Notes under the pieces: generated by a model | The model's input: only the letters and a program-made list of their open reading frames with translations | What the model was told of the DNA's origin: nothing | Database searches by the model: none | Program-made: the position numbers and the translations under genes | DNA from: Escherichia coli | GTDB taxonomy: Bacteria; Pseudomonadota; Gammaproteobacteria; Enterobacterales; Enterobacteriaceae | DNA: 64,000 nt | NCBI RefSeq assembly: GCF_001677475.2 | Contig: NZ_CP015229.1 | Direction: 5' to 3' (one strand) | Part shown: positions 22,549 through 26,839 of the stretch, piece by piece | How the letters are laid out: every line of letters begins with the position of its first letter | How positions within the stretch are numbered: position 1 is the first letter of the stretch

Positions 22549-22824
22549 CTATTTAAGATAGGCTCGAACCAGTTCAATAGTGTCGTCAACGGATTGGCTG
22601 ACTTCGCGGCTGTAGCAGTCATTTCGGTCAAACGTTTCCCGGATATGGCTTTCAAGCACTTCTGCCATCAGCCCGTTAGCCGCGCCCCGAACGGCAGCGA
22701 TCTGTTGGAGTATGGCACGGCATTCGGCATCACCCTCCAGCGACCGTTCCAGAGCATCAATCTGCCCCCGAATACGACGAACTCGAGTAAGGACCTTTTT
22801 CTTCTCTTCCGGAGTACTGGGCAT
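22549..22824 (-). CDS. frmR: formaldehyde-responsive repressor (CsoR/RcnR family)
   Basis: Start chosen at [21 protein letters not shown] giving 91 aa. Confidence 0.93.
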
Positions 22825-22850
22825 TTCGCACCTCATCATCTGTATGCAAT

Positions 22851-22899
22851 ATACTATAGGGGGGTATGCTATATGTCAATCCATACCCCTGTATAGTAT
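22851..22899. promoter_or_regulatory. long inverted repeat just upstream of frmR (candidate frmRAB promoter/FrmR operator)
   Basis: atactataggggggtatg ... catacccctgtatagtat, near-perfect 18-bp arms around a 13-bp spacer, 27 bp upstream of the frmR start. Confidence 0.7.
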
Positions 22900-23012
22900 A
22901 TAACACTGGAGAATAAAATTTATCCGGTGAATGTGGTCGGAAAACAAAGAGGAAAGGGGGTGGGGGCTAATCGGCAGGGAAGGCCGCCCCGGATAGCGGG
23001 CGGCAGAAGGAA

Positions 23013-23786
23013 TCAGAATTTCCAGGTCAGATGGGCTGCAAGTTGCAGACCGTTATAATCATCGGTTGGGGTGTCGTACCACACTTTACCTGCCGTCAGC
23101 CCGAGATTAAGTTGCTCAGTCAGCGGTTGAATACGTTGCAGACTGACGCTCTTCATGCTGCCGTAGCGTGTTTCTGGCGTCCAGTCATAGGTATAAGCGC
23201 CTGTTCCGCGGCTTAGCCATAGTTGCGTATAACCAATGCCGCGCGGGTCATTCAGACGCACGGAAATCATATTGCTATAACTACCACCTGCATCGCTGGA
23301 GTCATAATGGGTATAGCGGTAGCTGGTGATCACCGGGCCAGTATAGAGTGATACGCCGCCTTGCCAGGCATCGACTTCGACATCATCGTAATATTTAGTG
23401 TAGCGATAACCGGTCGTGAAAAGCGTTTTTGGTAACAGGGCCAGGTTAATATCCTGACGAAAATCCTGGCGGGCAAAGACCGGCGTATTATCCGCAAAGG
23501 CAATACCCGTTCGGGTTGTCAGCCAGTTATTCCATTTATACCAGACCGCACCCTGACCGCGAGTGGCATTGAAATGTTCAGTTTCATAATCACGACGCCC
23601 CTGGGAAAGATTAAAAAGCAGCGTTGCGTTATCAACTTTCGCCACCAGTTCAGCATACGCTAAATTACGGTTGCCATGATCGCCAGAATAATCGGTAAAA
23701 TCGTAGCCCGCGGTAATGGAAGTTAACCCGGCATAAGCGGGCAATGCGCTAAAAATGGCCGCCGCTAATAACGTCCGTTTTATCAT
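23013..23786 (-). CDS. yaiO: outer-membrane beta-barrel protein
   Basis: 257-aa ORF with signal peptide (MIKRTLLAAAIFSALPAYA) and C-terminal aromatic residue (..HLTWKF). Confidence 0.9.
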   Translation of the reverse strand: MIKRTLLAAAIFSALPAYAGLTSITAGYDFTDYSGDHGNRNLAYAELVAKVDNATLLFNLSQGRRDYETEHFNATRGQGAVWYKWNNWLTTRTGIAFADNTPVFARQDFRQDINLALLPKTLFTTGYRYTKYYDDVEVDAWQGGVSLYTGPVITSYRYTHYDSSDAGGSYSNMISVRLNDPRGIGYTQLWLSRGTGAYTYDWTPETRYGSMKSVSLQRIQPLTEQLNLGLTAGKVWYDTPTDDYNGLQLAAHLTWKF

Positions 23787-23787
23787 T

Positions 23788-24498
23788 TTAATCTCCTGTA
23801 CGGATAATTTCTTGTCGGAGTGAATAAGTTCCGGTAGGTAAATTACGTTCTACAATCACGCGCGGGCCAAGTTGCGTGTTCGGGGAAATAATTCGCCCAG
23901 GCAAAATAATAACTTGTACGCCAAGGCGTGAACGCTGCCCGATATAACAACCTAATTTATCGCATCCGGTAGCGAAAATTCCCTCTGGAGTTCGAACAGA
24001 CACGGGCTGTTCATCCAGACGATGATTACTGGTACGTACTTGTGCGCCTAAATATGCCTGGTTTTCAACTACCGAGTCGGCAATAAAACATTGCGGACCA
24101 ATCGTTGCTTCCGCTTCAATAACCGCATTTTTAATCTCGGTGGCAAAACCAATTTTTACGCCATTACTGATTATTGTGCCAGGACGAATAAACGCATAAT
24201 TACCTATCAGGCAGTTTGCGCCAATCACTACCGGACCCTGAATAACGGCACCATGACAAATACGGGTATTCGCGCCGATAACAACTTCACCTGCAGTTTC
24301 ATCAATAATTACCTGGTCTGCAATCTGAATATTTTTCTCTTTAACATTAAGCTTCAGATAGTTTTTCAGTTCCTGTGACAGAAGGTTGGGAATAAGCGGT
24401 TGACGCTTCCACCAGTGCGGAATAGCGGGTGGGTTTGTCGCGCTGAGGTTCGCGTCCAGTAAAAAAGGCAATAAGTCCATAAATAATCCAGATGGCAT
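23788..24498 (-). CDS. yaiX: hexapeptide-repeat (left-handed beta-helix) acyl/acetyltransferase; start uncertain because the longest ORF overlaps yaiP by 152 bp
   Basis: Repeated [LIV]-G-x-x-x-x hexapeptide motifs (VIGANTRI, VIGANCLIGNYAFIRPG, IGDN-like); single uninterrupted frame with no IS insertion. Confidence 0.8.
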   Translation of the reverse strand: MPSGLFMDLLPFLLDANLSATNPPAIPHWWKRQPLIPNLLSQELKNYLKLNVKEKNIQIADQVIIDETAGEVVIGANTRICHGAVIQGPVVIGANCLIGNYAFIRPGTIISNGVKIGFATEIKNAVIEAEATIGPQCFIADSVVENQAYLGAQVRTSNHRLDEQPVSVRTPEGIFATGCDKLGCYIGQRSRLGVQVIILPGRIISPNTQLGPRVIVERNLPTGTYSLRQEIIRTGD

Positions 24499-25543
24499 AA
24501 GCTAATAATACATACACAACGGAAAGCGGCGCTAAAGGCACCAACAACCAGCAACGATGAAACCAGGCGCTAAAAGCACCAATAACACAAACTACGCCGA
24601 CCCAGATAAGCGGAAACATTGCCAACACCACACCATGCGGCCCGGTGGTGATGAATTCATTAAACCAGGTAGTGAGATAAATCCCAACGCCATAAAGCAC
24701 AACCAACAGCATAGGAAATATACTGAAGATACCAAAGCGGCTAAATAAAAGTCTTTTATGCAGGCGCATACAGACCGCGTAGCCCACAATCCAACGCCGC
24801 CAGCGACGCCACTCCTCACGCGGGCTGTTGCATTCCTGTGGGTATACGATGCAGCGATTCGCCTGCCGAATACGGTAGCCGTTTGCCACTAATGTCCAGG
24901 TGAGATCAAGGTCTTCGACTTTAGTACGATCCGAGAAACCGAACTTACGCAATACATCAGTACGGAACATCCCGCAGGCACCGCTGATGATAAACGGTGC
25001 GCCGCCCAGGAGCTGCTGTAGCGTGCGCTTCATAACAATCATCGGCAACTTTACGGTCGCGCGGATGTGCGGTAACAGCCCCGCGCCTTTCAACGCAGTA
25101 GAGGGAATGCCGCCTACGGCATCAGCACCGCGCTCAATTTCTGCCAGCATATAGCCCATTCCGTCTTGATCGGGCGGAACATAGGTGTCGGCATCACTTA
25201 AAAAAACCTGGTCGCAGGTGGCGTAATTGAGGCCATTCATCAGCGCACCACCTTTACCGGTATTTTTTTGCGTGACGGCAACAAAGCGGTCGCCCCATTT
25301 GCGTTTGACTTTCGCCATGACCGCTTCGGTATTGTCCGTGGAGCCGTCGTTAACGCAAATTACCCGGCAAAAATAAGGGTTACGCAGTAGATTATCCAGT
25401 GACTGCGCCAGACACGGGCCTTCGTTATACGCAGGTATAATGGCGTCAATACAGCCTTTGTTTTGACTGGGTTTACGTCTTAGCGTACTTAAAAACCATA
25501 GCAACATTGCTATGGACATACAGATAAATATCCAGGTTTTCAT
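24347..25543 (-). CDS. yaiP: family-2 glycosyltransferase with N- and C-terminal transmembrane segments
   Basis: 398-aa ORF; GT2 signatures (IIPAYNEG, VNDGSTDNT, DAD); hydrophobic N-terminus and several C-terminal TM helices. Confidence 0.88.
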   Translation of the reverse strand: MKTWIFICMSIAMLLWFLSTLRRKPSQNKGCIDAIIPAYNEGPCLAQSLDNLLRNPYFCRVICVNDGSTDNTEAVMAKVKRKWGDRFVAVTQKNTGKGGALMNGLNYATCDQVFLSDADTYVPPDQDGMGYMLAEIERGADAVGGIPSTALKGAGLLPHIRATVKLPMIVMKRTLQQLLGGAPFIISGACGMFRTDVLRKFGFSDRTKVEDLDLTWTLVANGYRIRQANRCIVYPQECNSPREEWRRWRRWIVGYAVCMRLHKRLLFSRFGIFSIFPMLLVVLYGVGIYLTTWFNEFITTGPHGVVLAMFPLIWVGVVCVIGAFSAWFHRCWLLVPLAPLSVVYVLLAYAIWIIYGLIAFFTGREPQRDKPTRYSALVEASTAYSQPSVTGTEKLSEA

Positions 25544-25552
25544 GCAATTTGC

Positions 25553-26224
25553 TCAAAGAATCATTTTATGAATTACAAAGCCTTCACCCAGATCGCTATT
25601 GACCTGTTGCCCGCGAAATTGTGCAACTGCACGCAGGCGATCATGACGCATATAATCACGTCGTTCCTGGCTTTTATGTTTTTTTAATGCAGCAAGTTTG
25701 ACTGTGAAATATTCTTCTTTAACGGATTCAAAAACCTGAGGCATAAATGAAAGCCAGGTACTTGGGGTTTCGTAGCCGAGAATTTGTGGAATAGTGCGGC
25801 AGGCAACCATTGAAGCTTGATAAACAGCGAGATGATCCTGATGGCGGTCGGCATCATGCATGGTATATACCCGCATGATTTCAACATCAGAAGGAATTTG
25901 ATTTTTAATGATGTCTTCCAGGGCGGAAATCATATCATTGAGCTGTAAATGCGCGCGGGTGTCAGCAAAATTAAGATGAATAGTTTGGTGGCACCCTAAT
26001 ATCTTTAGGGCGTTGCGAGATTCTTCATGGCGATCGATTATTCCATCTGTGCCAGAGTTGCCGGTAGTCATCACCACGGCTGCGATATAAATTCCTTTTT
26101 GCGCAAGACGAGCAAGCGATGCGCCACAGCCTAATTCTATATCGTCAGGATGTGCGCCAATAGCAAGGATACCCTTTCTTTTATTTGCCGAAGAAAGGAG
26201 GGCTGAATCTAAAACTTTATCCAC
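25553..26224 (-). CDS. yaiS: PIG-L/LmbE-family N-acetylglucosaminyl deacetylase
   Basis: 223-aa ORF with N-terminal AIGAHPDDIELGCG motif characteristic of LmbE-like deacetylases. Confidence 0.85.
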   Translation of the reverse strand: MDKVLDSALLSSANKRKGILAIGAHPDDIELGCGASLARLAQKGIYIAAVVMTTGNSGTDGIIDRHEESRNALKILGCHQTIHLNFADTRAHLQLNDMISALEDIIKNQIPSDVEIMRVYTMHDADRHQDHLAVYQASMVACRTIPQILGYETPSTWLSFMPQVFESVKEEYFTVKLAALKKHKSQERRDYMRHDRLRAVAQFRGQQVNSDLGEGFVIHKMIL

Positions 26225-26839
26225 TTAATGACACTCCATTTTATTTATTATACTACAAGCACAACGATGCACTCAGAGACGTAATCTCTGGCGCAGTCAG
26301 ATGCTAATTTATAAGTGTTAAATGTTGCTCATAACTGAAAAGCCAGGGCTTTCAGACCCGGGGGTTCGACTGGGTAATGTTTTTATGCAATTCATATGTT
26401 AAGTGTTTGTATGTTTGGTATGTATAGTTATTTTGTTTTATACATTGTATTTAGATGTGATTTAGTTTGTCAATTAATTGCATTTAAAAAATATGTTCTG
26501 TGAACAAGCATTGTTTATATACATTATGTGAATGTAATATGCGGGTGATTGAGAATGATACAGTGACATATGTAATGCGAATATAATAATTTTATTATAT
26601 GTATTGATATTGATAGAAATAGTGAAGTAATAAATCTCATAATATGGTTGTTTATGCATCACTAGAATGAAGCATAGTAATTTTCTCAATTGTTAGGGCA
26701 GGGTAATTGCATATTTAATCTTTCCTTTGCCACTTTTTCGCTAAGAATAAAATCATCTGTGCGATAACAACTAATTCTTTTAATGAATGTTTTTATTCCT
26801 GAATACTGCTCCCATAACAAGACAGGGGAGCAGACAATC

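Follow-up and report, generated by a model that had tools for sequence, protein, structure and literature searches.

yaiS-yaiP-yaiX-yaiO of Escherichia coli: a conserved, mobile four-gene cassette that may make and export a hexosamine surface glycan

The 64,000-nucleotide stretch of Escherichia coli DNA considered here (from contig NZ_CP015229.1 of assembly GCF_001677475.2; hereafter, the window) carries, between frmR and tauA, four minus-strand open reading frames (ORFs) in the order yaiS-yaiP-yaiX-yaiO, spanning positions 23013-26224. A first-pass annotation made from the sequence alone had placed four same-strand genes at exactly these limits, as the ORF list of the window bears out, and had read them as a surface-glycan-like module comprising an LmbE/PIG-L-type deacetylase, a membrane-embedded family-2 glycosyltransferase (GT2), a hexapeptide-repeat acetyltransferase and an outer-membrane β-barrel. 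Domain assignments were judged against curated family cut-offs, and profile scores above them were obtained for all four proteins, as LmbE/PIG-L, GT2, hexapeptide-repeat and YaiO-family members. We describe below the evidence that the four genes are a single conserved and mobile unit, and weigh the reading that they make and export a hexosamine glycan. The features concerned are as follows.

25553-26224, minus strand: yaiS, 223 amino acids (aa), GTG start, with GGAG at 26234-26237
24347-25543, minus strand: yaiP, ORF of 398 aa
23788-24498, minus strand: yaiX, longest ORF, 236 aa; best-supported form 23788-24480, 230 aa
23013-23786, minus strand: yaiO, ORF of 257 aa
26225-26839: spacer between yaiS and tauA, AT-rich (31% GC over 615 bp; 25% GC in its core, 26380-26700)
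26444-26473, minus strand: sigma-70 promoter-like TTGACA-18-TACAAT, 11/12 consensus, about 220 nt upstream of the yaiS start
25568-25687, plus strand: ykiC, intact small ORF of 39 aa, antisense to the yaiS 3' end
22549-22839, minus strand: frmR, the flank on the yaiO side
from 26840, plus strand: tauA, the flank on the yaiS side

Gaps or overlaps of only 1-10 bp had been proposed between the genes, and this is so at two of the three junctions: 9 nt separate yaiS from yaiP and a single nucleotide separates yaiX from yaiO, whose Shine-Dalgarno sequence, AGGAG, lies within the last yaiX codons. It is not so between yaiP and yaiX (overlap of 23-152 nt), where the 5' end of yaiX runs into the 3' end of yaiP by 23 nt with the CTG start of RefSeq and by 125-152 nt with any canonical start. 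A clear Shine-Dalgarno sequence was not found for yaiP or yaiX when the junctions were read, as likewise noted in a 2026 paper (PMC13058169). The cassette has a GC content of 47.6% (44% in yaiS, 45% in yaiX) against 52% for the whole window. The region is 98.7% identical to its best match among 5,426 complete E. coli genomes, and since YaiS, YaiP and YaiO recur with exactly the window's sequences in many public E. coli assemblies, the copy described here is an ordinary E. coli allele and no oddity.

Several starts are open to yaiX on the minus strand: ATG 24498 (236 aa, a length also mentioned for other strains in PMC13058169), ATG 24480 (230 aa), TTG 24471 and the RefSeq CTG 24369 (193 aa). 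The invariant pair Trp29-Trp30, in the numbering of the 236-aa ORF, is encoded upstream of this CTG and also upstream of the GTG start (174 aa) annotated for yaiX in a second E. coli copy, the island copy introduced below, so that both annotated starts need correction because they cut it off. In distant lineages (L007, L013, L017 and others) yaiX begins with "MWW" and overlaps yaiP by 14 nt; enteric copies share the ATG of "MDLLPFLLD", which is position 24480 of the window and yields 230 aa and a 134-nt overlap with yaiP. From these alignments, ATG 24480 is the best-supported start.

Gene order provides the main new support for reading the four genes as a module. The order PIG-L/GT2/LbH/YaiO (LbH being the hexapeptide β-helix protein) is kept in at least nine contexts, with order and orientation confirmed by tblastn in every case, and homologues of YaiO down to 31-36% identity always come last in a four-gene array. 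A fifth gene common to all copies was not found across the compared loci, which include the following.

E. coli, frmR-tauA site: the window copy
E. coli strain R2, second (island) copy, L005 4999-8205: near an IS66 remnant, PAPS reductase and IbrB-like genes
Salmonella, contigs L011 and L012: with a PapB-like regulator, ccdAB and an integrase
Citrobacter braakii, L014: flanked by hemB and a MASE1 two-component system
Citrobacter sp. FP75 and Stenotrophomonas maltophilia E301: L016 and L017
contig L015: adjoining an arm-type integrase fragment
four metagenomic contigs: two of the four adjoin an MvaT/H-NS-like gene

YaiP is the most conserved of the proteins, at 60-66% identity where YaiO has fallen to 31-36%. 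Ratios of nonsynonymous to synonymous substitution rates (dN/dS) between the window and the island copy are 0.07 for yaiP, 0.12 for yaiS, 0.16 for yaiX and 0.24 for yaiO, values that point to purifying selection. YaiP, YaiX and YaiO of the island copy are 94-97% identical in amino acid sequence to those of the window and YaiS only 62%, and because YaiS is so much more diverged than the other three, the island copy is a mosaic with a recombination breakpoint between yaiS and yaiP. The earlier suggestion of a co-functional module is thus strengthened by an order conserved in at least nine contexts and by purifying selection, and the four genes, as judged by these comparisons, behave as one conserved, mobile unit. 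An anti-phage defence role was also considered and dropped, PADLOC giving no match for any of the four proteins. As regards the neighbourhood of the cassette, the DNA upstream of tauA in O157:H7 (L003 1-5736) encodes a response regulator, a MASE1 histidine kinase, a UhpC-like gene and an ABC transporter, and the same set is found immediately downstream of the cassette in C. braakii (L014 8013-14783); the two blocks were therefore once neighbours.

YaiP scores 98 bits against Glycos_transf_2 (cut-off 23). Its nearest curated family is PgaC/IcaA (TIGR03937), where its 100.7 bits fall below the 422-bit cut-off and an hhalign comparison returns a probability of 99.4%; against NodC (TIGR04242) it reaches 29.6 bits (cut-off 550). 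Identity to E. coli PgaC is 28% across 235 residues of the glycosyltransferase (GT) domain, the transmembrane (TM) regions not being alignable. No substitution occurs at D66, D117-A-D119 or E210-D211 across 32 diverse homologues or the 11 members of the YaiP clade, and R250-W251 and G254 are likewise invariant among YaiP homologues. At the QxxRW site YaiP has R247-W-R-R-W251, with RW(R/K)RW throughout the clade, and PgaC has QRLRW when aligned. The set of D66, DxD, ED and RW reads as the signature of processive family-2 enzymes, from which the Arg at position 247, where Gln would be expected, is the one departure.

The processive-synthase topology foreseen in the first-pass annotation, a GT2 domain with N- and C-terminal TM helices, is borne out by the predicted layout of one N-terminal and three C-terminal TM helices and by a synthase-type fold in the structure model. 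In this AlphaFold2 model (pLDDT 87, pTM 0.85) an N-terminal TM helix is followed by the GT-A domain, an interface helix (residues 241-261) that bears the RW motif, and three long C-terminal helices, and the TM helices pack on the GT domain in the arrangement of a synthase. Fold comparisons with YaiP gave the following scores and extents.

Chlorella virus hyaluronan synthase: 27.7; 336
BcsA: 26.6; 337
archaeal "minimal" PcManGT: 26.4; 301
Xenopus HAS1: 25.1; 329
GtrB, DPMS and ArnC: 13.8-14.5; GT domain only

YaiP is, accordingly to this model, predicted to be built like a synthase and not like a polyprenyl-phosphate transferase. Its clade is narrow, with about six full-length relatives above E = 1e-70 and then a steep fall to generic GT2 proteins (HMMER, 1.84 billion cluster representatives), and a scan of genome contigs for the clade returned, among the matches listed, two true orthologues, those of Citrobacter sp. 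FP75 and Stenotrophomonas maltophilia E301. One suspected YaiP-YaiX fusion (P0084, 567 aa) was set aside, its C-terminal extension being devoid of hexapeptide repeats as judged by eye. Farther afield, a YaiP-like GT2 of Mumia sp. (Actinomycetes; 34% identity) lies 3.3 kb from an opposite-strand PIG-L gene whose product is 39% identical to YaiS (L019 5001-5732 and 9089-9616), possibly a remote trace of the association between GT2 and PIG-L.

YaiS matches PF02585 (PIG-L) with 89.2 bits (cut-off 28.2), and the solved structures nearest to it are those of diacetylchitobiose deacetylases from archaea (E 3e-12), in an alignment that extends to the C-terminus. AHPDD and DRHQDH, the metal and catalytic motifs of the family, are invariant in seven homologues (H25, D27, D28, H128, D130, H131), the last 38 aa hold a further set of 10 invariant residues, and a signal peptide or hydrophobic segment was not found in the protein, all of which leads us to infer a cytoplasmic zinc de-N-acetylase of the PIG-L/LmbE family. 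In K-12 MG1655, codon 186 is changed from CAG to TAG (Q186amber; locus L002 5603-6160 as compared with 25553-26224 of the window), and the annotated K-12 YaiS has 185 aa, lacking 38 residues that include the 10 family-invariant ones; because this conserved tail is lost, K-12 YaiS is probably inactive. A glutamine-inserting amber suppressor (supE) would give wild-type YaiS from the K-12 allele. Through its Keio deletion, yaiS figures among the genes required for growth at a critical high temperature of 46 °C (PMC5828445), although yaiS is already truncated in K-12, a point that goes without explanation there; in one table of the same paper the descriptions of yaiS and ydgH seem to have been exchanged.

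Several RefSeq records label yaiS a pseudogene ("missing C-terminus") despite a lesion-free sequence (for example, L001 5462-5824 and L004 3413-3823). In strains 5444 and AZ147 such calls are an annotation artefact, for the sequences are free of lesions and the truncation coincides with an annotated ykiC, the antisense ORF whose product has been detected in K-12 through epitope tagging (PMC6001520); the truncated yaiS annotation appears to result from calling ykiC there.

YaiX scores 64.6 bits against PF00132 (Hexapep; cut-off 27), and among NCBIfam families it is matched best by the acetyltransferase portion of bifunctional, GlmU-like archaeal enzymes. Of solved structures, the nearest is the amino-sugar-1-phosphate N-acetyltransferase domain of Sulfolobus ST0452 (E 2e-21; 2e-33 in a profile comparison), with GlmU and LpxD coming after it. 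Residues R105, E121, K123 and N158 are invariant and align with sugar-phosphate-binding positions of GlmU, which we take to be R333, E349, K351 and N386 in the numbering of that enzyme. The position of the catalytic His (presumably H363 in GlmU and H308 in ST0452) is occupied by an invariant Pro135, and that of the adjoining Tyr by Phe138. Of the earlier description as a hexapeptide-repeat acetyltransferase, the hexapeptide β-helix stands; the enzymatic label is unproven because the GlmU-type catalytic His is not conserved. An acyltransferase activity is nonetheless plausible from the residues that are kept.

YaiO scores 181.7 bits against its own domain family (TIGR04390; cut-off 32), and its structure model (pLDDT 90) has a signal helix at residues 1-19 and a 14-strand β-barrel. 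An outer-membrane location, as well as transcription, is reported for YaiO of K-12 in the summary given by Molina et al. (PMC4453288), in agreement with the barrel originally proposed, and we regard the protein as a predicted outer-membrane channel. No solved structure matching YaiO by sequence was found; by fold it is most like the sugar channels CymA and OmpG, at 7-9% sequence identity. A relationship to the PgaA/BcsC/PelB porins was examined and rejected, given no sequence signal (hhalign probability of 0.7% against PgaA) and structural scores below those of the 14-strand channels. A profile search for distant YaiO-domain proteins, such as TPR fusions, returned nothing past the 31-36% identity group. 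The gene is otherwise familiar as a popular marker for E. coli in the polymerase chain reaction (PCR).

The 615-bp region upstream of yaiS (26225-26839) had been noted at the outset as AT-rich and likely to be silenced. Its composition (31% GC against 52% in the window) agrees with the first point, and published H-NS binding in K-12 (PMC3946193; PMC3661553) with the second. In K-12, a "constitutive" yaiS promoter identical to the 26444-26473 site was identified by genomic SELEX (systematic evolution of ligands by exponential enrichment), with the spacer flagged "HNS" (Shimada 2014, PMC3946193), and a further paper includes it among H-NS-associated "promoter islands" (PMC3661553); it is thus a divergent control region, bound by H-NS in K-12. 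A single strong promoter was found upstream of the four genes, which by their conserved order, their tight or overlapping junctions and the yaiO Shine-Dalgarno sequence within yaiX would behave as one unit. Distant metagenomic copies adjoin a gene of the MvaT/H-NS family (L007 4454-4810; L008 3402-3758), and the Salmonella copies sit directly downstream of a PapB-type fimbrial regulator (L011 5208-5498; L012 1480-1782), neighbours that give hints of xenogeneic silencing and adhesin-style control.

Signals at the level of RNA are few. A riboswitch or other known RNA in the leader was considered and rejected, as neither the leader nor the cassette matched an Rfam family at E ≤ 1 and the leader has only a modest fold (z = -2.1). 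Internal terminator-like sites in the region are no more numerous than in shuffled sequence; one of them, a hairpin with a T-run at 25496-25515 (minus strand) within the first 20 yaiP codons, may be a chance occurrence, as this count suggests. An antisense RNA within yaiP has been published (PMC4666370). Beyond the cassette, a GC-rich hairpin at 22983-23004 (minus strand) lies 9 nt past the yaiO stop codon; it is without a U-tract, was not scored as an intrinsic terminator in the terminator scan, and may mark the 3' end of the transcript or stabilise it. Farther downstream, a long perfect palindrome (22844-22906, minus strand; spacer fold z = -4.2) overlaps a promoter-like TTGACA-17-TAGTAT of frmR and is presumably the FrmR operator; no canonical terminator was seen between the cassette and this palindrome.

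At a coverage of at least 80%, the region is present in 4,251 of the 5,426 complete E. coli genomes (about 78%), and about 565 further records have a best match at 80-90% identity, a band that corresponds to the diverged island copy. Both main laboratory lineages, K-12 and B, carry broken copies. K-12 has two independent lesions, yaiX::IS2 and the yaiS Q186amber; the IS2 junction in yaiX occurs in 367 genomes and the exact amber-containing yaiS 61-mer in 355 records, which are all K-12-type laboratory strains among those listed. Sequence comparison confirms that yaiX, split by IS2 in MG1655, is uninterrupted in the window. In BLR(DE3) only yaiO of the cassette remains, adjoining an IS1 element (a B-strain deletion of three genes), one strain has an IS3 insertion in the cluster, and in O157:H7 the cassette is absent and other genes occupy the site, consistent with the yaiO-negative PCR reported for it.

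The first-pass annotation had described the cluster as intact here and essentially unstudied; yaiX is indeed intact, but two functional reports exist. According to the EcoGene 3.0 entry, which cites a 2011 meeting abstract, a repaired yaiX "facilitates clumping during vegetative growth", with YaiP required (PMC3531124). Since removal of IS2 also relieves polarity on yaiO, with which the clumping result is compatible, the repair does not prove an activity of YaiX itself. The second report is that overexpression of the 71-aa K-12 YaiX fragment led to more drug tolerance and greater virulence in silkworms (PMC13058169). That knowledge of the cassette has lagged can be traced to the broken copies of K-12 and B, the missing locus of O157:H7 and a promoter located in H-NS-bound DNA.

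Our preferred interpretation, to which we assign a probability of about 0.6, is that yaiS-yaiP-yaiX-yaiO is a self-contained, mobile, H-NS-silenced cassette that makes and exports a hexosamine glycan, most likely derived from N-acetylglucosamine (GlcNAc), which is displayed at the surface or secreted and promotes cell-cell aggregation. Expression would begin at the promoter reported for K-12 in the H-NS-bound, AT-rich spacer. YaiP would be an inverting family-2 glycosyltransferase whose catalytic domain, facing the cytoplasm and predicted to pack on its own TM helices in an arrangement likened to that of the hyaluronan, cellulose, poly-N-acetylglucosamine (PNAG) and chitooligosaccharide synthases, polymerises a UDP-activated N-acetylhexosamine (HexNAc) and passes the chain into or across the inner membrane. 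YaiS, as a cytoplasmic zinc de-N-acetylase, would remove an acetyl group and YaiX, as a cytoplasmic GlmU-like β-helix protein, would add an acyl group, so that the precursor, the primer or the growing end undergoes N-acyl editing before its exit. YaiO, a barrel of 14 predicted strands reported from the outer membrane, would serve as the conduit through it. The substrate is probably an amino sugar because relatives of YaiS deacetylate GlcNAc or chitobiose and YaiX is nearest to amino-sugar-1-phosphate N-acetyltransferase domains. That the genes are functional is suggested by dN/dS values of 0.07-0.24 and by invariant catalytic motifs.

Several observations weigh against this interpretation. The evidence for clumping exists solely as a meeting abstract, and, unless it was suppressed, the yaiS amber was still present in the K-12 strain that clumped, so that clumping did not require full-length YaiS. 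YaiP has only four TM helices, with RWxRW in place of QxxRW; YaiS and YaiX are, by prediction, cytoplasmic, and so poorly placed to act on a polymer under translocation; and YaiX, lacking the catalytic His of GlmU, could be non-catalytic. The likeness of YaiO to sugar channels is, at 7-9% identity, a generic similarity between barrels. Finally, neither a periplasmic scaffold nor a TPR domain, a PgaD-like partner or a cyclic di-GMP (c-di-GMP) module was found among the ORFs, in the domain scans or in the comparison of cassettes.

The cytoplasmic location of both tailoring proteins would sit more easily with a chemistry akin to that of Nod factors, in which YaiP makes short chito-oligosaccharides that stay cytoplasmic, as with NodC, YaiS de-N-acetylates the non-reducing sugar, YaiX re-acylates it, and the product leaves by an inner-membrane route and then through YaiO. 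The solved relatives of YaiS do act on the non-reducing GlcNAc of chitobiose, a NodB-type reaction, YaiX keeps the amino-sugar-binding residues of GlmU, and YaiO resembles the oligosaccharide channels CymA, OmpG, KdgM and NanC. YaiP, moreover, has a minimal layout of 1+3 TM helices, which is also the topology reported for NodC. We nevertheless consider this pathway unlikely: YaiP scores 30 bits against NodC and 101 against PgaC/IcaA, the compared copies of the cassette contain no NodIJ-like ABC exporter, the catalytic base is not conserved in YaiX, and clumping is more readily understood from an adhesive polymer than from an oligomer that diffuses away. Still less probable is a role in which YaiP adds one HexNAc to a lipid carrier in the manner of GtrB, ArnC, DPMS or PIG-A, YaiS deacetylates it like PIG-L, MshB or ArnD, and YaiX re-acylates it, the outcome being a decorated lipopolysaccharide, enterobacterial common antigen or other envelope component, with YaiO in an unrelated role. 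PIG-L enzymes do follow the transfer of GlcNAc to non-sugar acceptors (in glycosylphosphatidylinositol, or GPI, mycothiol, bacillithiol, aminoglycosides and teicoplanin), the GT domain of YaiP has weak sequence matches to ArnC, GtrB and DPMS, and the archaeal PcManGT, with the same minimal fold, is also a top structural match. This route is, however, disfavoured because the fold comparison of YaiP favours synthases, and further by the invariance of the ED and RW motifs typical of processive enzymes and by a cassette without flippase or periplasmic transferase; it would also leave the strict linkage to an outer-membrane barrel unexplained.

A more deflationary account, that these are decaying or unlinked accessory genes and the module an accident of annotation, could appeal to the losses in K-12 (IS2 and amber), in B (IS1 deletion), in one strain (IS3) and in O157:H7 (absence), to silenced expression under laboratory conditions and to the want of clear Shine-Dalgarno sequences at yaiP and yaiX. 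Such decay is hard to reconcile with a region held at 80% coverage or more by about 78% of the 5,426 genomes, with K-12 lesions restricted to about 360 genomes, or with low dN/dS and an identical order across families of Gammaproteobacteria; the conservation data largely refute it, and we give it very little credence. A bolder variant of the glycan cassette, tentative and on balance doubtful, is a minimal trans-envelope machine of an undescribed kind, combining a small synthase like HAS or NodC, a scaffold-free outer-membrane channel and cytoplasmic N-acyl editing by a PIG-L deacetylase together with an atypical β-helix transferase, with a glucosamine polymer or oligomer bearing a non-acetyl N-acyl group as its product. 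If true, this machine would stand as the enterobacterial equivalent of Nod-factor chemistry, or as a fifth class of synthase-dependent exopolysaccharide, and would be present in most E. coli strains yet hidden in K-12 and B.

For the secretion of exopolysaccharides (cellulose, PNAG, colanic acid and capsules) E. coli serves as the reference organism, and the cassette is found in about four-fifths of its sequenced strains, where intact alleles like that of the window are common. A product that proved to be a new adhesive glycan, or a modified oligosaccharide, would matter for the aggregation, biofilms and host or phage interactions of natural E. coli, and for understanding how an enzyme of the synthase type can cooperate with tailoring enzymes in the cytoplasm and with a barrel lacking a periplasmic partner; should it be another PNAG-like polymer, the addition would be modest.

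Set beside known systems, the cassette is closest in outline to PgaABCD/IcaADBC, with which it shares, by prediction, a GT2 membrane synthase, a de-N-acetylase and an outer-membrane barrel, as well as a reported aggregation phenotype and what is probably a compact four-gene operon. The parallel, called loose when first drawn, is only that, for synthase, deacetylase and barrel are all present and yet none has the distinguishing features of PgaC, PgaB or PgaA, nor is there a PgaD. PgaB/IcaB is a periplasmic CE4 deacetylase, whereas YaiS is a PIG-L protein without signal peptide; PgaA joins a TPR domain to a 16-strand barrel, whereas YaiO is a predicted 14-strand barrel that lacks a TPR domain and is unrelated to PgaA in sequence; and PgaD and the c-di-GMP input are missing from the cassette, which has instead an extra LbH protein. 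YaiO belongs to its own family (PF19413/TIGR04390) and is only 7-9% identical to the 14-strand monomeric channels CymA, OmpG, Omp33 and FadL. With class I hyaluronan synthases and BcsA, YaiP has in common the D, DxD, ED, xxRW motifs and the fusion of a GT-A domain with TM helices, but at 14-17% identity and with four TM helices as against six to eight; BcsA has a PilZ domain that YaiP lacks, and the Gln of QxxRW is Arg in YaiP.

The logic of NodC-NodB-NodA is also similar, in that a GT2 HexNAc synthase with a small 1+3 TM layout, a de-N-acetylase and an N-acyltransferase work on the cytoplasmic side. The components differ, NodB being a CE4 enzyme and YaiS a PIG-L one, the fold of NodA contrasting with the LbH of YaiX, and NodC matching YaiP with only 30 bits, and the Nod pathway uses the NodIJ exporter where the cassette has a dedicated outer-membrane barrel. 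Transfer of GlcNAc followed by PIG-L deacetylation, as envisaged for the cassette, recurs in PIG-A/PIG-L, MshA/MshB, BshA/BshB, BtrM/BtrD and teicoplanin Orf2*, and for teicoplanin the freed amine is then N-acylated, as proposed for YaiX. The transferases of these pairs, however, are GT-B enzymes, soluble or peripheral, whose acceptors are small molecules or lipids, and no membrane synthase with a linked outer-membrane channel is among them. Because the defining accessory proteins of the PGA, Nod and Bcs systems were looked for and have no equivalents among the four, the cassette is a member of none of them, and by analogy it would work most like a synthase-dependent glycan secretion system.

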